Of a stretch of DNA of 20,000 nucleotides, positions 3,516 to 15,642 are shown one piece after another. This stretch comes from an uncultured virus (IMG/VR IMGVR_UViG_3300042934_000632). Taxonomy: Duplodnaviria; Heunggongvirae; Uroviricota; Caudoviricetes. The translations under genes were made by a program, and so were the position numbers. Below the pieces are notes generated by a model that was given only the letters and a program-made list of their open reading frames with translations, made no database searches and had not been told where the DNA came from. The stretch lies in the IMG/VR virus record IMGVR_UViG_3300042934_000632; one strand, written 5' to 3'. Position 1 is the first letter of the stretch, and every line of letters begins with the position of its first letter.

Positions 3516-4292
3516 ATGGGTTCTAAGCATTCAGGGCGAGCCTATCGTTTCCTTGTACCTATTGTGATTATTGTAGTTCTATTAATTGCATGGGGCACTA
3601 GAGAACATAGTCTAAGCCAGAAGCACCAGTCTACGATCTCTTCCCTTAAATCAGAACTAAGTAGCAAGGGTCAGGTTATTGAGAATAAGAATATCCTCAT
3701 TCAGCAGAAACAAGCTGAACTTGATCTCCAGTCTTCGCTGCTGGAACAACAGCAAAAGAAGCTAGACAAAAGACAGGCTATTATCGAGCTGAATATTAAG
3801 GAGGCGCAAGTCTCCGATAATAAGATCGAAGCTCAAAAGAAGACTATCAATCAATTGCAAAAGAAGTTGTCTTCGGAACAGTCCAATACCAGTTTGAAAG
3901 CCAAGCCAACCACTGTAAATGCTACTACAGTCTCGGCAAAAGCATCAGGAAGCTTTCAATCTGGATGGACTGCAACTTACTATTCGCTAAGCGTGGCTTC
4001 CACTGGGAAGAGACCAGGTCACCCTGGCTACGGAATCACGGCTAGCGGACGTAAGGTAGTAGACGGTGTTACGATTGCCGTTGATCCACGATACATTCCT
4101 TTGGGAACTTGGATCGAAATTAAAATGCCTAACGGCGAAGTCATCAAACGAAGAGCCGACGATACAGGCTCCGCCATTAAAGGACATAAGCTAGATATTT
4201 ATGTGGCTGGCGTCAGTGACTCATACATCTATCAAGAACTTGGTAAGAAACAAATCTCTATCCGTATTCTCGGAAAGGGAGAACTGAACTAA
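3516..4292 (+). CDS. Membrane-anchored coiled-coil protein with a C-terminal 3D (Asp-Asp-Asp) domain; YocH/Sps-like peptidoglycan lytic transglycosylase
   Basis: N-terminal hydrophobic helix (FLVPIVIIVVLLIAW), long Q/K/E coiled coil, and 3D-domain motifs TATYY, GITASG, IAVDPRYIPLGT and ADDTGSAIKGHKLDIY. AAGGAGG RBS. Confidence 0.92.
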   Translation: MGSKHSGRAYRFLVPIVIIVVLLIAWGTREHSLSQKHQSTISSLKSELSSKGQVIENKNILIQQKQAELDLQSSLLEQQQKKLDKRQAIIELNIKEAQVSDNKIEAQKKTINQLQKKLSSEQSNTSLKAKPTTVNATTVSAKASGSFQSGWTATYYSLSVASTGKRPGHPGYGITASGRKVVDGVTIAVDPRYIPLGTWIEIKMPNGEVIKRRADDTGSAIKGHKLDIYVAGVSDSYIYQELGKKQISIRILGKGELN

Positions 4293-4733: not shown

Positions 4734-5051
4734 ATGTGGTGTAGAATCATGGAGAACACGGAGAATCCTTCTAATATCTTTGAATTTGAAAGCAACAATG
4801 ATTTAATTGTTCATTATACCGTATCGAAAGAAACAAGCACTCCAGTTGTTGAGATTACAAAGTTAGCTACTATTGAAAATAGACTGGAAACATGTGCTAT
4901 TAGTCTTATCAAAAATGAAATTCAGATCCACCTATATACAGGAGAACAGTTATTCAGAGTTTGCGTAGGTGGAATCAGAAGATTCATGTTGTTTGAGCAT
5001 AATGATACAGTTCATGAACGACTAATTATTGATGTAACGAAAGACTTGTAG
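4734..5051 (+). CDS. Hypothetical protein (105 aa)
   Basis: GAGAGGAG RBS; fills the gap between the brfA-like gene and the repeat protein. No family recognised. Confidence 0.65.
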   Translation: MWCRIMENTENPSNIFEFESNNDLIVHYTVSKETSTPVVEITKLATIENRLETCAISLIKNEIQIHLYTGEQLFRVCVGGIRRFMLFEHNDTVHERLIIDVTKDL

Positions 5052-5062
5052 GAGGAGTAGAA

Positions 5063-5593
5063 ATGGCCGTACCAGGCAGCCTGTGGGTTCAAGGGACCCA
5101 GCTTCGTTTTACGAGTCAAAGCGGAGTCAACTTTGCATATGAAGGTACTTATAGTAGCTCGCCTGCTGGAGCTAAACCAGGCAGCTCATGGATCGAAGGC
5201 GATAACTTCGCTTATATCGACCAGTATGGTTCTAAAAGACTCGTTATTAATTATACTGCTACTAATATTCCCGCCGCAGTTGCAGGCAGCTTATGGATTT
5301 ATGGCAATTATCTTTATTGGATTAACACTAATAAGAATAAAACCTACGGACATGGAGATGCAACTCATCAGAATACAAGCTATAATGATGGTAGTTATAA
5401 CGATTATAATAATTCATCAACATCCCATGGTGATTCTACGGTAACTTTCCAAGATTCGCCGACACATGGTAATCATGTACCCTACCATGCGGACTGGCCT
5501 GCTTCACATACGGATAGCTATAACTATCAAGATACACACAACAATAGCTACCATACGGATACTCCACATGCTGATTATCCTATTCAAGTGTAG
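5063..5593 (+). CDS. Repeat protein and putative radical-SAM substrate: three N-terminal A-x-(P/A)-G-S-x-W repeats plus a C-terminal tail with 14 (H/Y/F)-X-(D/N) motifs
   Basis: AGGAGGAG RBS. N-terminal repeats start at residues 2, 37 and 72 (35-aa period). The tail from His97 contains HGD, HQN, YND, YND, YNN, HGD, FQD, HGN, HAD, HTD, YQD, HNN, HTD and HAD. It lies directly upstream of a SPASM radical SAM gene. Confidence 0.85.
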   Translation: MAVPGSLWVQGTQLRFTSQSGVNFAYEGTYSSSPAGAKPGSSWIEGDNFAYIDQYGSKRLVINYTATNIPAAVAGSLWIYGNYLYWINTNKNKTYGHGDATHQNTSYNDGSYNDYNNSSTSHGDSTVTFQDSPTHGNHVPYHADWPASHTDSYNYQDTHNNSYHTDTPHADYPIQV

Positions 5594-5608
5594 GGAGGAG
5601 AGAACACA

Positions 5609-6829
5609 TTGACAACAGAAGTGAGACCTATGGGTGTTTCGTGTCCTTTAAAATGTGTTTATTGCTATCAAGAACCCCAGAGGGTTGCGGGAAATACTAA
5701 TGCAAAATATGATTTGGCGAAGATGATTCAGGAGATCTCAAAGACTCGAACAAAGAATATTAATTTCTTTGGTGGCGAGATCTTAATGATGCCTATAGAA
5801 GATCTAGAGGTACTGCTGGCTTACGCTCATGTTAAGTTCGGTGGATCAGGTGTTCAAACCAGCGGATCTATCATGAGAGATGAACATATTGAACTCTTCA
5901 AAAAGTACAATGTTCAGCTGGGCTTCTCCATTGACGGTCCTAACGAGCTAAACAGTCTCCGAGTTCCACGCAATCCAAAGACTCCTATTGAAAGTACAAC
6001 GGATAATACAATGAAATATATCAAGCTATCAAAAGAAGCTGGGCTTGATGTAGGCCTTATTATTACCCTTCATAGAGAAAACTCTACTCCAGAACGTATT
6101 CCACGGTTGTTTAATTTTATCAAGTGGTTATGGGATCTTGGTATTCGTAGCGGGAATATTCATACTCTAGAAATTGAATCTACAATGCCGAACCACGACT
6201 TTGTATTGACACAAGAAGAGAACATCTGGGCTTACACCCAACTTGCCGAGTTCTTTAAAACGCTTCCTGACCATGGATGGAATCCTTTCGCAGAGATTAA
6301 AGACTTACTGATGGGTAACGATCAAAAAACTCTTTGTTATTGGCACCGATGCGATCCATTGAATACTCAAGCTGTCCACGGAATCGAAGGTGACGGTGCA
6401 ATCTCTAACTGTGGACGAGCAAATAAAGAAGGAATTGACTGGGTCAAAGCTCCTGATAATTATTATGCAAGATACATCAGCTTCTATCATACGCCTCAAG
6501 ATATGGGTGGCTGTAATGGATGCCGCTTCTGGACAGTATGCGGAGGAAGTTGCCCAGGTGAATCCGATCAGGGGGATTTCAGAAATAAAACAACACATTG
6601 CTCTACTCAGAAAGCAATACTTTCCTATTATGAAAAAGAACTTATTGATGAAGGCAAGCTACCCATTACGACATCGCCTTTGCTTCCTCTTGTTGAACAG
6701 CTCGTTCTTAATGGTCTTGAAAGAGGAGAGAACTTATATCTTAATACTGTTATTTCAATGATTGAAGAGATGAGAACAGAAGTCATCCAACTGGAAGTCG
6801 TAGAGGAGGATATCAATGAAACTACTTGA
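5609..6829 (+). CDS. Radical SAM enzyme with C-terminal SPASM domain (peptide/protein maturase type)
   Basis: CxxxCxxC (CPLKCVYC), FFGGE and SIDGP motifs. The SPASM cysteines are CYWHRC, ISNC, CNGCRFWTVCGGSC and THC. TTG start behind GGGAGGAG. There is no N-terminal RRE/PqqD extension, since the SAM cluster motif starts at residue 12. Confidence 0.95.
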   Translation: MTTEVRPMGVSCPLKCVYCYQEPQRVAGNTNAKYDLAKMIQEISKTRTKNINFFGGEILMMPIEDLEVLLAYAHVKFGGSGVQTSGSIMRDEHIELFKKYNVQLGFSIDGPNELNSLRVPRNPKTPIESTTDNTMKYIKLSKEAGLDVGLIITLHRENSTPERIPRLFNFIKWLWDLGIRSGNIHTLEIESTMPNHDFVLTQEENIWAYTQLAEFFKTLPDHGWNPFAEIKDLLMGNDQKTLCYWHRCDPLNTQAVHGIEGDGAISNCGRANKEGIDWVKAPDNYYARYISFYHTPQDMGGCNGCRFWTVCGGSCPGESDQGDFRNKTTHCSTQKAILSYYEKELIDEGKLPITTSPLLPLVEQLVLNGLERGENLYLNTVISMIEEMRTEVIQLEVVEEDINETT

Positions 6830-7760
6830 TTTTAGTATGCCACCATTTGCAAGAACGGTTTGGGCCTCTCAAGAAATAGAGAAGGAGTGGCGTCCCAAAC
6901 TGGCTTTAGCCTCTCAAGCTTATGAGCGTTTAGAGTATGAAACGGTTGTTCATGGCCTTAGAGCCTGTACAACAGCACATTGTACTCCTGATGATATGGT
7001 TCGTCGGATTCAATTTTATGCAAAGAAAGGTCTTATGTATCATCCCTTACAGCAAGTAGGTGCTTATACAGGGTTCGCTCATACACACCCTCCAGTTATT
7101 CCAGGAAAACCTTGGACCTGGTTCGGTGTTGTAGCTAAAGACCCTCTTGATGCTTACACCTTTGCTGAGGCATCTGCATTGACAGAAGATTCCGCGGGTA
7201 AGGAAATAGATCACTCAACGATTGGCACTCTTCTTGGATACCCTGAATGCTGCCGAAAGTTCTTCACAGATGTATGGGCCGCGGGATATGTTGATCCTGT
7301 ATGGCAACAAGCAGAAAACTGTGAAGGTGAATACGTAGTGAAGAAAGAAGAGCATCTTATTCAGCTAAGCAAGGAGACTCCATGGGAGACTTCACCACTA
7401 CTGAGATACATTGGAGTACGTATCATGCCTCACATTCCATGCTCTCATGATTGTAAACCTTCTCTGGTTATCGCAAGAAGTTGGTTGGATCTTGGTAGAG
7501 AGTTGGCCATACCAGGCATGGAAGAGCTTGAGCAATTTCTTCGGATGCCAGTAGAATGGGATTGCTTGAAGGGGATAGCCTATGTGTCTACTCCAATCTT
7601 CAAGATTGAAACGAATTCCATGACATGTTATCCACGGCATGTTGTTCAAAAGGAAGGAACATTTAGACCAAAGAGTGGAGCAAAAGGACTGAAGTTTCCT
7701 TTTATTCCGCTAGGATCTGATAAGTTTGCTCACCTCTTTGGAGGAGGAAGCGGGTGCTAA
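6816..7760 (+). CDS. Cys/His-rich protein with DUF483-like motifs, probable partner of the radical SAM enzyme
   Basis: Motifs IGTLLGYPECCRKFF and PHIPCSHDC resemble the conserved DUF483 segments LGYPxCC and PCSxxC (recalled, not searched). It overlaps the rSAM gene by 14 nt and has a GAGGAGG RBS. Confidence 0.7.
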   Translation: MKLLDFSMPPFARTVWASQEIEKEWRPKLALASQAYERLEYETVVHGLRACTTAHCTPDDMVRRIQFYAKKGLMYHPLQQVGAYTGFAHTHPPVIPGKPWTWFGVVAKDPLDAYTFAEASALTEDSAGKEIDHSTIGTLLGYPECCRKFFTDVWAAGYVDPVWQQAENCEGEYVVKKEEHLIQLSKETPWETSPLLRYIGVRIMPHIPCSHDCKPSLVIARSWLDLGRELAIPGMEELEQFLRMPVEWDCLKGIAYVSTPIFKIETNSMTCYPRHVVQKEGTFRPKSGAKGLKFPFIPLGSDKFAHLFGGGSGC

Positions 7761-7763
7761 TTC

Positions 7764-8009
7764 ATGTTTAAACAACGTTTATGGGATTGCCTTTTGGCAG
7801 TCCTTTCTTTTATTGTAGCAATAGTATTAATCATTGGTATAGCTTTTCTAGCTGTTTTCTTGTCAGACATCTATTGGTTTAAGATACTTGTAAGTACTGT
7901 TGTTATTCTTATCTTGTCCTTCGTTGTTATTATCGCTCTTTCACTGTTTGTTAACTGGCTGTTTATTGAACCATACAAACATTGGAAAGAAGAAAATAAA
8001 AACAGATAG
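7764..8009 (+). CDS. Small membrane protein with two predicted TM helices
   Basis: Two long hydrophobic stretches (about residues 9-33 and 41-67) and a charged C-terminal tail. GGAGGAGG RBS, 3 nt after the previous stop. Confidence 0.75.
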   Translation: MFKQRLWDCLLAVLSFIVAIVLIIGIAFLAVFLSDIYWFKILVSTVVILILSFVVIIALSLFVNWLFIEPYKHWKEENKNR

Positions 8010-8116: not shown

Positions 8117-8446
8117 ATGTTGATGAGATTGAGTTCGCAAAATGTAAGTAATGCTTTTATGACGTTCATGAAAGAGGCTCCTAAACAATACGAAGCTTGG
8201 CAAGAAATGATTATGAAACTTGACGTAGCAAGCGCACTTGTCAATAAGACAGAGGAGCTTGCCTATATTTCAGTTCTTGCCGCTGTTAGACTAGAAAGCG
8301 GTTTGGAGTTCCATGTAAAACAAGCAAAATCTTTTGGAGCTACGCGGGATGAAATCATTAGTGCAATTCTATTACCACTTCCCGCTGTTGGTAATGTAGC
8401 CATTCAATCTCTACCAATCGCATTACAAGCTTACGATGTGTCATAA
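8117..8446 (+). CDS. Carboxymuconolactone decarboxylase (CMD/AhpD-like) family protein lacking CxxC
   Basis: KTEELAYISVLAAVRLESGLEFHVKQAKSFGATRDEIISAIL matches the CMD family pattern (L..k..ELi.ia......l..H...A...GaT.eEI). The true start may be ATG 8123. Confidence 0.85.
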   Translation: MLMRLSSQNVSNAFMTFMKEAPKQYEAWQEMIMKLDVASALVNKTEELAYISVLAAVRLESGLEFHVKQAKSFGATRDEIISAILLPLPAVGNVAIQSLPIALQAYDVS

Positions 8447-11897: not shown

Positions 11898-12215
11898 ATG
11901 AGTTCAGTCGTAGAAAGAGCAAAGTTGGTTCGGGCAAATGTCTTTGAGATCCTGTCTAAGTTTCCTGAAACAAGAGATAGTGATCGTCGGCTCCTCCTTC
12001 GGTATTGGAACCATGTTGACGGACTCCAATTCGATTTTACATTCCCTGAACAATTCGCAACTACTGGGACATCTGCTGAAAGTATTACCCGCGCCCGTAG
12101 GCAGATTCAGAAAGAAGGTCACTTCGTAGCTTCTCAAGAAGTTTTGGAGCGCCGAGAAGAAAGTCGTAGCGGAATGCGAGAATACTTTATCGGTTCTGAA
12201 GTATCCAGAGCTTAG
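11898..12215 (+). CDS. Hypothetical protein, paralog of 12221..12502
   Basis: Shared motifs PETRDS..LLLRYW...D and AESITRARR. GGGGG RBS. Confidence 0.8.
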   Translation: MSSVVERAKLVRANVFEILSKFPETRDSDRRLLLRYWNHVDGLQFDFTFPEQFATTGTSAESITRARRQIQKEGHFVASQEVLERREESRSGMREYFIGSEVSRA

Positions 12216-12220
12216 TCTTT

Positions 12221-12502
12221 ATGGCTGAGCAAGAGTTCAAAAGGGCAGATCAAAAAGCTGCCTACCTGATGGACGCAGCCCCGCAAACAAGACAGGACCA
12301 TTTGCTACTCATCCTAATGTACTGGCAGATATTCGACAATATTGATTTGCCTGACACAGTGGTAAAAGAAATTATAGAGAAAGCCACTGCACCCGAGACC
12401 ATTACACGTTCTAGGAGAAAGGTCACGGAAAAGTTAAGGTACAAACAATTGTTTGAACTTCAAAGGATGATAAGGGAACAGGTACAGGAAGAGGCTCCTT
12501 GA
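12221..12502 (+). CDS. Hypothetical protein, paralog of 11898..12215
   Basis: Shared motifs PQTRQD..LILMYW...D and PETITRSRR. Confidence 0.8.
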   Translation: MAEQEFKRADQKAAYLMDAAPQTRQDHLLLILMYWQIFDNIDLPDTVVKEIIEKATAPETITRSRRKVTEKLRYKQLFELQRMIREQVQEEAP

Positions 12503-13800: not shown

Positions 13801-15642
13801 GTGGTCCCATTGTTCTCTGTTCGTCTGAAAGGCGATTTCTTAGATATTCGATTTGAAACTTACCTATCTCCTAGGGAATATGCACTCACCAGTCAGATTT
13901 TCGAGGGAATGAAGGGATCATTTTTTCACGAACCGACTAATTCTTGGCGCATACCGAAGGAATTTGTAGACGATATCAACGATGCGTTCACTGATAAAGT
14001 CGCATGGTATACTTCTATCAATGAAATCAAAGGGATTCGTGAAGTTATTTTACCTAAGTTCACCGTATATTCAGAAGGGCTGGAAGATTTAAAGCTCCAG
14101 CCTTATCCTTTTCAAGTGGTAGGTGCTAGCTTCTTCCATGATTTAATGCAGGGATTACTTGCTGATGAGATGGGATTAGGAAAAAGCTTACAGTCAATTG
14201 CAGCTACCCACCTTCTTTGGAAAGAAGGACATGTTCATAAAGCTTTGGTGATCTGTCCATCTTCATTAAAATATCAATGGGCAAACGAGATTGAAAAGTT
14301 TACTGATCATAAAGCCGTTGTTATTGATGGCACACCATCAGGACGCAAGAAACAGCTTCTTCAGTGGTTTGAAGGAGATGAATTTCTTTTTGCAGTCATT
14401 AACTATGAGCTTGTTCGTAATGACTTAGAGCTAATCAAAGCGATTCCTGTTGATGTCATTATTGCTGATGAAGTCCATAAGATTAAGAATCATCTGACAA
14501 AGACTAGCATAGCTTTAAAACAGTTACGATCCAAATATAAGTTTGGAATGACAGGCACTCCTGTACAGAACAAGCCCGAAGAATTATATAATATTATGGA
14601 TTTCTTGAATCCGACAATTCTTGGAAACTTCTGGGCATTTCGTAATCGATATGTCGTTACAGGAGAAAAGTTTGGTCAGAAGAACGTGGTCATTGGATAC
14701 AAGAATCTTGATGAACTCCGTAAGCGTGTTTCACCTTACATGCTACGACGCATGAAAAAAGACGTAGCTCCTGAGCTTCCTGATATTACAATCAGTGACT
14801 ATCCTGTTGAGATGACATCCGAACAGAGACGTATCTCAGAGGCGATGTCAGAGGACTTACTTGAACTCCTTAAAGAGATTACCGAATGGAGGAAAAGCCA
14901 GCCAGCAGGAGCGCAGGACGGCTCTGACGGCGAGGTAAAGCATCCGAAGGAAGGTCAGCAGATGGGATACTTCACTATGATGCTTGAAGTTTGTGATTCA
15001 CCTCAGCTACTACTCATGAGTGATGCAAATATGCCCAAACGTTATGCTGAAGGTATTGATGCGTCTAATGTTAGAAGTCCTAAACTAGATGAGATCTATG
15101 ATCTTTGCACTGACCTTATTGATTCTGGCAATAATAAAATCATGATTTTTACACAGTTCACAAGTATGCAAAAGTTGGTTGTTGACCGTCTTAGTAAAAT
15201 TGGAAAATGTGAGATCATCAATGGATCGATGAAGCCTTTCGAAAGACAAGCATCGTTGGACCGTCACAAGTATGATGAAGAAATAAACTTCCTTGTCTGT
15301 ACAGATGCTGCAAACTATGGTCTTAATGCTCAGCACTGTAGTGTTCTGATCCATGTGGATCAACCATGGAATCCTGCAACTTACGACCAGCGTAATGGAC
15401 GTATCCATCGTATTGGTTCAGCATTTAAAGAGGTTAACATTATCAATTTGATTACCCGCGGCGGGATTGATGAGCGTATCCAGGAAGTACTCTATAAGAA
15501 AAGAGAATTCTCTAATCAGCTGGTTGAGAAAAACGCTGATGAACGCGCTGAATTAGGACGACTAAACAGCAATGTCATGAAGTCCTTGCTCAAGCAGCCT
15601 GCCAAACGGGGCAGAAAGAAAAAAGAAGAGGAGGTTGAGTGA
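13801..15642 (+). CDS. SNF2-family (SF2) ATP-dependent helicase/translocase
   Basis: LLADEMGLGKS (motif I), ICPSSL (Ia), IADEVH (II), MTGTPVQN (III), MLRRMK, IFTQF, GLN and WNP...QRNGRIHRIG (VI). Confidence 0.96.
   Translation: MVPLFSVRLKGDFLDIRFETYLSPREYALTSQIFEGMKGSFFHEPTNSWRIPKEFVDDINDAFTDKVAWYTSINEIKGIREVILPKFTVYSEGLEDLKLQPYPFQVVGASFFHDLMQGLLADEMGLGKSLQSIAATHLLWKEGHVHKALVICPSSLKYQWANEIEKFTDHKAVVIDGTPSGRKKQLLQWFEGDEFLFAVINYELVRNDLELIKAIPVDVIIADEVHKIKNHLTKTSIALKQLRSKYKFGMTGTPVQNKPEELYNIMDFLNPTILGNFWAFRNRYVVTGEKFGQKNVVIGYKNLDELRKRVSPYMLRRMKKDVAPELPDITISDYPVEMTSEQRRISEAMSEDLLELLKEITEWRKSQPAGAQDGSDGEVKHPKEGQQMGYFTMMLEVCDSPQLLLMSDANMPKRYAEGIDASNVRSPKLDEIYDLCTDLIDSGNNKIMIFTQFTSMQKLVVDRLSKIGKCEIINGSMKPFERQASLDRHKYDEEINFLVCTDAANYGLNAQHCSVLIHVDQPWNPATYDQRNGRIHRIGSAFKEVNIINLITRGGIDERIQEVLYKKREFSNQLVEKNADERAELGRLNSNVMKSLLKQPAKRGRKKKEEEVE

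Follow-up and report, generated by a model that had tools for sequence, protein, structure and literature searches.

The uncultured virus IMGVR_UViG_3300042934_000632 (Caudoviricetes) encodes what we read as a protein maturation module made of three adjacent genes, which specify a repeat protein, a radical S-adenosylmethionine (rSAM) enzyme with a SPASM domain, and a DUF483-like partner. We analysed a 20,000-nucleotide (nt) stretch of its 251,543-bp genome (complete by CheckV estimate), hereafter the window. The rSAM enzyme would post-translationally modify aromatic-x-(Asp/Asn) triplets in the repeat protein, turning each into a small ring, and the product would remain a protein. We put this explanation as a whole at roughly 55%. 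Comparison with its relatives shows the cassette in the window to be another, compact example of a module that is widespread in phages, with a chemistry that is most likely triceptide-like and applied to whole proteins.

The repeat protein

A dense array of triplets marks the product of the first gene as the candidate substrate. Its last 80 amino acids (aa), residues 97–176, hold 14 [HYFW]-x-[DN] triplets, the number given in the preliminary description of this DNA, in the order HGD, HQN, YND, YND, YNN, HGD, FQD, HGN, HAD, HTD, YQD, HNN, HTD, HAD. Over its full length the protein contains 17, whereas 200 shuffled versions average 6.1 (z 5.6), and the same count in other registers gives 5 at i+1, 3 at i+3 and 8 at i+4. 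Among the 765 open reading frames (ORFs) of at least 60 aa in the genome, the best 80-aa segment holds 14 triplets in this protein and 7 in the runner-up. The protein is the sole outlier for triplets and also the sole ORF with an N-terminal GSxW[IV]xG repeat.

The repeats follow a folded domain. Residues 1–96 (positions 5063–5350) form a three-fold beta-hairpin repeat domain (GSxW[IV]xGxxLxY[IV]D), and an AlphaFold2 (AF2) model assigns a per-residue confidence (pLDDT) of 91–98 to residues 1–100, below 50 to about residues 101–165, and 87 to the last residues, where there is a short strand. The tail is predicted to be disordered, and we infer from the model that the C-terminal strand pairs with the N-terminal domain; the protein ends in HADYPIQV. 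A fold search with the model gave no PDB match at E ≤ 1e-3, its weak rows being choline-, cell-wall- and glucan-binding beta-hairpin repeats. The BFVD search returned one significant match, a 342-aa viral protein.

The N-terminal domain reaches beyond the module. Its family (GSxWIEGxxLxYIDxxGxxR) counts 624 representatives at E ≤ 1e-3; among the best 150 of these, 82 proteins are repeat-rich and 68 lack repeats, some of the latter being fragments and some bearing the domain at the C-terminus of larger proteins. Proteins P0087, P0110, P0129, P0097 and P0140 exemplify the wider family. Some of the repeat-less proteins are apparently secreted, and the domain is also found behind tail-fibre-type N-termini, with H-x-D repeats after it.

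A conserved three-gene unit

The three genes recur together across phages. Co-occurrence elsewhere had been named beforehand as a check on the assignment, and it is borne out. An alignment-based DUF483-like profile found 132 relatives in IMG/VR, of which we kept 79 loci (an earlier viral scan with the single protein had found none), while a different DUF483-like profile found 5 relatives in 185,579 species genomes. Carriers of the module are thus viral for the most part, on counts obtained by different search patterns. The five cellular carriers are Chengkuizengella axinellae and metagenome-assembled genomes (MAGs) of Thermus, Chloroflexota, Pirellulales and Planctomycetaceae. Together with three isolated Thermus phages and the window, these make 88 records, with two loci that merely repeat the window's own genome left out.

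An rSAM homologue is present in 87 of the 88 records, the exception (L085) being cut by its contig end 99 nt upstream. At 78 of these 87 loci a same-strand neighbouring ORF is enriched in aromatic-x-[DN] triplets at z ≥ 5; it lies upstream of the rSAM gene in 74 of the 78, and no more than 100 nt away in 46. Nine loci fall under z 5 (L003, L007, L015, L021, L034, L039, L056, L074 and L075). Six of them (L003, L007, L015, L021, L074 and L075) carry 4–11 H-x-[DN] triplets on the C-terminal tail of the rSAM enzyme, and L034 is cut at the contig start. By homology to the window's own substrate (phmmer, E ≤ 1e-3), a relative adjoins the rSAM gene in 47 of the first 84 records, including Cumys_13 and phiMa_29 of the Thermus phages Cumys and phiMa.

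Three of the genes, rather than four, make up the conserved unit. The preliminary description had proposed four coupled genes, and the ORFs and their spacing (gaps of 15, −14 and 3 nt in order) are as it gave them; the fourth, an ORF with two transmembrane segments (2-TM), drops out of the unit because neither it nor the other neighbours in the window have homologues at the other loci. No other family occurs at more than 13 of the 87 loci, and no protease, exporter or nucleotide-modification gene is conserved among them.

The triplet itself is what the substrates share. The 78 enriched ORFs hold 3989 triplets at i/i+2, where shuffles predict about 1170, and 781, 702 and 725 at i+1, i+3 and i+4. 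In the 72 distinct substrates, 2771 of 3125 His residues lie in H-x-[DN]. Triplets follow one another at a spacing of 5 (1381 cases), 4 (541) or 3 (513) residues, and because this spacing varies, the triplet rather than a longer period is the conserved unit. The aromatic position is filled by His (2986), Tyr (544), Phe (264) or Trp (195), and the +2 position by Asp (3224) or Asn (765). Single arrays can be far from this average: that of L068 has 39 Phe against 6 His and is nearly pure Phe-x-Asn, and Trp and Tyr abound in those of L018 and L020. Since the aromatic residue varies while Asp or Asn at +2 is fixed, ring chemistry fits these arrays and metal binding does not. The repeats are very probably the substrate of the rSAM enzyme.

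The closest cellular copy lies in C. axinellae (L084, NZ_JAVAMP010000002.1), whose DUF483-like protein is 52% identical to that of the window. It encodes two consecutive substrates, one of 237 aa with the N-terminal domain and one of 195 aa with 39 triplets.

The radical SAM enzyme

The second gene encodes an rSAM enzyme that scores 59.2 bits against Pfam Radical_SAM (cut-off 29.5) and 101.9 bits against phrog_1802. The motif CPLKCVYC starts at residue 12 and supplies the CxxxCxxC cysteines C12, C16 and C19. Eight further cysteines (C243, C248, C268, C302, C305, C311, C315 and C331) are invariant in 49 relatives, a pattern from which the enzyme is judged to bear the full SPASM auxiliary-cluster set. 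No Pfam domain stands ahead of the cluster motif, so the enzyme has no N-terminal recognition domain; the preliminary description had likewise read it as a CxxxCxxC enzyme with an eight-cysteine SPASM domain and no recognition element.

The enzyme groups with SPASM enzymes that modify proteins and peptides. In each of the 49 relatives the top matches are the cyclophane formers DynA, YhhB and AmcB together with anaerobic sulfatase maturase; these four and TIGR04083 reach E ≤ 1e-5 throughout, with DynA giving the best E-value over the set (1.1e-31) and anaerobic sulfatase maturase the second. Among solved structures the top match is anSME (E 2.8e-4, core only). The clade therefore sides with protein- and peptide-modifying enzymes, as a family of its own, and not with nucleotide-modifying rSAMs, a grouping that would have spoken against the preliminary description. 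Its narrower suggestion of a place among XyeB, GrrM, FxsB or HxsB does not stand, for the window enzyme is far under every cut-off: 38.8 of 450 bits for XyeB (TIGR04496), 38.7 of 310 for GrrM/OscB (TIGR04261) and 36.1 of 370 for HxsB (TIGR03978), while FxsB (TIGR04269) is matched by 47 of the 49 relatives with a best E-value of only 2.2e-15, short of membership. Scores for YhhB (NF041707; 50 of 445 bits) and DynA (55.3 of 450) are similar. Viperin reaches 44.3 of 180 bits in NCBIfam, and the PADLOC pVip match (47 bits) covers the rSAM core only, so the enzyme is not a pVip member; a defence-system reading was rejected because PADLOC returned generic viperin-core matches only.

Most rSAM enzymes of the module carry H-x-[DN] triplets of their own past the SPASM domain (for example L015:2091-3710, L010:4628-6004, L003:6001-7449, L017:3153-4586 and L077:4817-6013). 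In these tails 286 of 374 His residues lie in the motif, and in the catalytic cores 35 of 614. Self-modification, tethering and metal handling are possible roles. The enzyme of the window and its nearest relatives (L005, L012 and L084) have no such tail. At two loci, L039:3938-5992 and L043:2662-5178, the rSAM genes are split by LAGLIDADG homing-endonuclease inserts, which give ORFs of 684 and 838 aa and after which the domain resumes; these inserts look like inteins.

The DUF483-like partner

The third gene encodes a divergent DUF483 protein. It scores 19.8 bits against Pfam DUF483 (PF04467), below the cut-off of 25 and over residues 129–154 only, around GYPECC. Some relatives pass PF04467 (L031 at 28.2 bits), and we therefore place the window protein on a divergent branch of DUF483 around GYPxCC. 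The protein has 77 homologues, mostly metagenomic. Its invariant residues include R49, C145 and C146 (both in GYPxCC), D160, C213 and W248, and C209 is nearly so. The AF2 model is confident (pLDDT 92.5) and has no Foldseek match in the PDB at E ≤ 1e-3. The top VIA-align rows, 2guk_B (Z 6.0) and NleE (Z 4.3), are both in the range of common scores and name no fold, and the ESM Atlas returned only virus-rich, nameless DUF483 clusters. Complex prediction from the DUF483-like and substrate alignments scored 0.00 in a run without controls, and speaks neither for nor against a complex.

Several relatives are fusions. At L030:5995-7440, L031:5953-7473, L015:5152-6870 and L017:5101-6864 the DUF483-like domain has as its fusion partner either a class I methyltransferase on the C-terminal side (Methyltransf_23; these forms measure about 480 aa) or a family 2 glycosyltransferase (GT2) on the N-terminal side. 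L017 also has its repeat protein encoded downstream, rather than upstream, of the enzymes. DUF483–rSAM domain fusions in InterPro are described in the available text of PMC11437467. A docking or presenting domain common to several tailoring enzymes would suit this fusion pattern.

Range and genomic place of the substrates

Substrates range from compact proteins to very long ones. Bar one 41-aa fragment, they span 170–1471 aa and hold up to 130 motifs. The short forms combine the conserved N-terminal domain of about 95 aa, with its three beta-hairpin repeats, with a variable tail. They often finish in the conserved sequence H-x-D-[QYN]-P-x-x-[VI](G), which is found in 22 of 72 substrates. Many long forms end in H-x-D-S-[EQ]-[YVLF].

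Long substrates often sit among tail genes. At 5 of 13 loci scanned with PHROGs (L008, L010, L018, L035 and L081), the gene immediately upstream of the long substrate is of the tape-measure, minor-tail or tail-fibre kind. At L010 and L022 a phrog_8610 gene stands between or beside the tail gene and the substrate, at L018 a holin and an endolysin follow the cassette, and in Cumys and phiMa the substrate closes the baseplate and fibre block. A tblastn search with the N-terminal part of the long L010 substrate found no match among isolated phages.

A modified protein is the better reading of the product, since no protease or exporter is conserved and substrates reach such lengths. The preliminary description had leaned the same way, and the observation behind it, that no protease or ABC exporter adjoins the cassette, extends from the window, where Pfam found no protease or transporter family among ten ORFs scanned, to the 87 loci.

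Proposed maturation and competing explanations

We propose that the SPASM enzyme takes a hydrogen from Cβ of the Asp or Asn at +2, as on the triceptide route, and that the Cβ radical attacks the ring of the aromatic residue (at C2 for His). Each triplet would lose 2 Da as it closes into a three-residue cyclophane, giving up to 14 rings in the window's substrate. The DUF483-like protein, with its four cysteines, would act as an obligate partner, whether by docking or presenting the substrate or by performing a coupled step. The product would stay a protein. Many other phages have the repeats at the C-terminal end of proteins that occupy the tail-tip or tail-fibre slot; the substrate of the window is a minimal form, made of a beta-hairpin domain and a tail and encoded among replication genes.

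Analogy favours cyclophane formation at the triplets by a modest degree, because an aromatic residue at i paired with Asp or Asn at i+2 is the triceptide pattern. Triceptide synthases are SPASM rSAM enzymes that join residue i to i+2; in the available texts of PMC11002830 and PMC11499958, OscB joins Trp to Cβ of Asn or Asp, XncB and OscB join Phe to Cβ of Asn, YxdB joins Tyr C3 to Cβ of Asp, and HaaB, YhhB and HtkB join His C2 to Cβ of Ala, Arg and Lys. More tentatively, and at somewhat less than even odds, phages would staple whole proteins in this way, with every triplet (14 here, more than 100 in tail-fibre-type proteins) a strained cyclophane that stiffens a segment of the fibre. Such a segment may resist heat and proteases and may also chelate metal, and the tail, once stapled, may be looped back on itself if the conserved strand at its C-terminus docks on the beta-hairpin domain.

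Several observations weigh against crosslinking of a structural protein. The rSAM enzyme reaches no curated NCBIfam cut-off, the top score being 72.5 of 425 bits for the cyclophane-forming AmcB (NF041718). The heme-pathway SPASM enzyme AhbC (55.3 bits) and anaerobic sulfatase maturase (TIGR03942; 53.6 bits against a cut-off of 349.45, so not a member) score near several cyclophane formers, and for this reason sequence alone does not fix the chemistry. We found no published His-to-Asp/Asn link in the available triceptide texts (PMC11002830, PMC11499958). Tails with at least three H-x-[DN] triplets occur on 51 of 74 distinct rSAM enzymes, and with at least five on 31, and these could point to metal handling instead. 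The available text on the Thermus phages (PMC11437467) suggests DNA modification for their version of the module. Finally, in the window and in its nearest relatives, L005 (146 kb) and L012 (158 kb), the module lies amid nucleotide-metabolism genes, not tail genes (in the two relatives ribonucleotide reductase, DNA methyltransferase, HNH, Erf and kinase genes), and a structural role for the 176-aa protein is therefore no more than a possibility.

The best-surviving rival, itself unlikely, keeps the triplets and changes what is done to them. The enzyme would form a C–N or C–O link, on the model of the His–Tyr link of dynobactin or the ether of darobactin, oxidise the β-carbon of Asp or Asn, or epimerise, and the DUF483-like protein or the fused domains would add a second modification. 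That DynA has the best E-value over the relatives, with anaerobic sulfatase maturase second, and that no triceptide family cut-off is reached both speak for such a chemistry, as do the methyltransferase and GT2 fusions, which show further tailoring in relatives. Yet the strict i/i+2 pairing covers any aromatic residue, heteroatom-free Phe included, which is the triceptide pattern, and oxidation or epimerisation of Asp alone needs no conserved aromatic residue two positions upstream.

It is improbable that the cassette makes a classical RiPP, a peptide made on the ribosome and modified after translation, with the beta-hairpin domain as leader and the modified tail freed by a protease of the host or one encoded far off in the phage genome. 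The small size of the substrate, its folded N-terminal domain and tail modelled as disordered, and its place among early-type rather than tail genes would all suit a released peptide. Against this, the absence of a conserved protease or exporter extends to every other family, none exceeding 13 of the 87 loci; elsewhere the same repeats end proteins of 700–1471 aa in tail-gene blocks; the N-terminal domain lacks repeats in 68 of the 150 best-scoring proteins and is sometimes C-terminal, unlike a dedicated leader; and the conserved C-terminal cap (22 of 72) suggests that the whole chain matters.

The tip of the T4 long tail fibre holds His-x-His iron sites, and the H-x-D arrays might likewise bind metal, either to supply iron to the Fe–S enzyme or as sites in a trimeric fibre, instead of serving as a substrate. 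The rSAM enzyme and its partner would then act elsewhere, for example on DNA as the Thermus phage paper proposes. This reading is very improbable: although His fills 75% of aromatic positions with Asp as its usual partner, the rSAM tails bear the same triplets, and cyanobacterial homologues lie beside deazapurine DNA-modification genes (available text of PMC11437467), it leaves unexplained the Phe-, Trp- and Tyr-based arrays of L068, L018 and L020 and the 765 of 3989 triplets in which Asn stands in place of Asp, an H-x-D tail is absent from the window enzyme and its closest relatives, the best-scoring SPASM relatives are protein modifiers, and no nucleotide-modification gene is conserved with the trio.

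Cassette anatomy and genomic setting

Strong ribosome-binding sites and the 14-nt overlap between the rSAM stop and the DUF483-like start tie the first three genes together as an operon (Table 1). The TTG start of the rSAM gene agrees with an alignment in which its N-terminus matches relatives from residue 1. For the 2-TM ORF, the closest upstream GGAGG run stops 16 nt short of the ATG. The 2-TM product matches only its own genome in phmmer, has no homologue at the other loci at E ≤ 0.01 and finds no family in Pfam, PHROGs or PADLOC scans; the ORF is probably adjacent to the conserved module and outside it. A terminator-like hairpin with a T-run, which may mark the end of the operon, lies within it.

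Table 1. Features of the cassette and nearby positions in the window
Feature	Position	Strand	Remarks
Shine-Dalgarno AGGAGG	5050..5055	+	before substrate gene
Probable substrate ORF	5063..5593	+	176 aa
Repeat tail, substrate residues 97–176	5351..5590	+	14 triplets
Substrate C-terminus, HADYPIQV	5567..5590	+	
Shine-Dalgarno GGGAGGAG	5593..5600	+	before rSAM TTG start
Radical SAM/SPASM ORF	5609..6829	+	406 aa, TTG start
Shine-Dalgarno GAGGAGG	6803..6809	+	before DUF483-like gene, within 3' end of rSAM gene
DUF483-like ORF	6816..7760	+	314 aa
2-TM ORF	7764..8009	+	81 aa
Terminator-like hairpin and T-run	7783..7804		23 nt past DUF483-like stop, within 2-TM ORF; consensus match only
3D-domain ORF	3516..4292		258 aa
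CMD-family ORF	8117..8446		
Small ORF, first of tandem pair	11898..12215		105 aa
Small ORF, second of tandem pair	12221..12502		93 aa
SNF2-type helicase	13801..15642		phrog_62

The cassette lies in a phage replication region, as the preliminary description had it. Pfam and PHROGs place a primase, a RusA-like resolvase, a thymidine kinase, an SNF2-type helicase and a deoxynucleoside monophosphate (dNMP) kinase around it, with a 3D-domain protein and a CMD-family protein also nearby. The 2-TM, CMD-family and 3D-domain ORFs and the ORFs at 4734, 8552 and 9050 were each considered as parts of the module and rejected, having no homologues at other loci (E ≤ 0.01).

Three neighbours have features of their own. 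In the 3D-domain protein, a hydrophobic segment at the N-terminus is followed by a long stretch that resembles a coiled coil and, at the C-terminus, by the 3D domain (45.5 bits); the protein likely acts on the cell wall, and its gene is sited among replication genes. Homologues of the SNF2-type helicase lie directly downstream of the module at 12 other loci (L031, L045, L053–L058, L060, L064, L065 and L083), which probably reflects synteny within a lineage. The two adjacent small ORFs are similar to each other and form a tandem pair. The AGGAGG ribosome-binding sites and the close copy in C. axinellae hint at a host among the Bacillota.

Implications

If the proposal is right, viruses apply to full-size proteins a chemistry for which the only known examples are small peptide natural products of bacteria. 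The modified proteins would often occupy the tail-fibre slot that decides host recognition, which would make this a new maturation step for phage proteins, and it could explain the stability of some fibres, including those of Thermus phages. Triceptide chemistry would extend to a His–Asp/Asn link not yet described, and this would be the first enzyme-installed radical crosslink in virus proteins. The window offers a compact and easily expressed set, in which a single enzyme and a single partner go with a substrate of 176 aa that holds 14 motifs, and the module opens a first way into the function of the DUF483 family.

Relation to known systems

The trio itself has been seen before. The preliminary description knew of no characterised phage system with this layout, yet an rSAM module of an rSAM, a DUF483 protein and a third protein of unknown function has been described in the Thermus phages Cumys and phiMa and in prophages (Viruses 2024;16:1410, PMC11437467); the available text of that paper mentions neither the repeats nor crosslinks. 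Cumys and phiMa, and also phiLo, carry the same three genes as the window, in the same order and all on one strand. By tblastn, the rSAM enzymes of the three phages are 40–43% identical to that of the window (E 1e-88 to 1e-98) and their DUF483-like proteins 41–47% (E 2e-64 to 2e-75), while the third protein shares about 30% identity with the window's substrate over the N-terminal domain, with E 7e-8 against phiMa (residues 1–171). Cumys_13 and phiMa_29 have the same beta-hairpin domain followed by about 250 aa of H-x-D repeats. The window differs from them in its shorter tail (14 triplets against 61–62), which mixes His, Tyr and Phe, in an rSAM enzyme without the H-x-D C-terminal tail of that comparison set, and in its setting: another host, a 251.5-kb genome with strong Bacillota-style ribosome-binding sites, and a module among replication genes rather than at the end of a baseplate block. 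A search of the literature on phages, DUF483, AmcB and triceptides or cyclophanes, with most subscription journals outside its reach, found no paper on such a modification.

Among bacterial systems, the His-Xaa-Ser system pairs the repeat protein HxsA with the rSAM enzymes HxsB and HxsC. Like the window, it joins a protein of His-x-small-residue repeats to SPASM-type rSAM chemistry; unlike it, it has more than a single rSAM gene, and its third residue is Ser, not Asp or Asn. DynA and DarE belong to the SPASM enzymes and, as is proposed for the module enzyme, form crosslinks from aromatic side chains at i/i+2 (available text of PMC11002830), whereas their substrates are short secreted antibiotics.

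The triceptide systems (XncB, OscB, MscB, YxdB, HaaB, YhhB and HtkB) share with the window a SPASM rSAM gene beside an aromatic-X-X repeat product. The window enzyme, unlike theirs, is not a sequence member of a curated triceptide family, and its module has no conserved protease or exporter. Where triceptide enzymes act on peptides, the phage enzymes would act on whole proteins of up to 1471 aa with as many as 130 motifs, alongside an apparently obligate DUF483-like partner.

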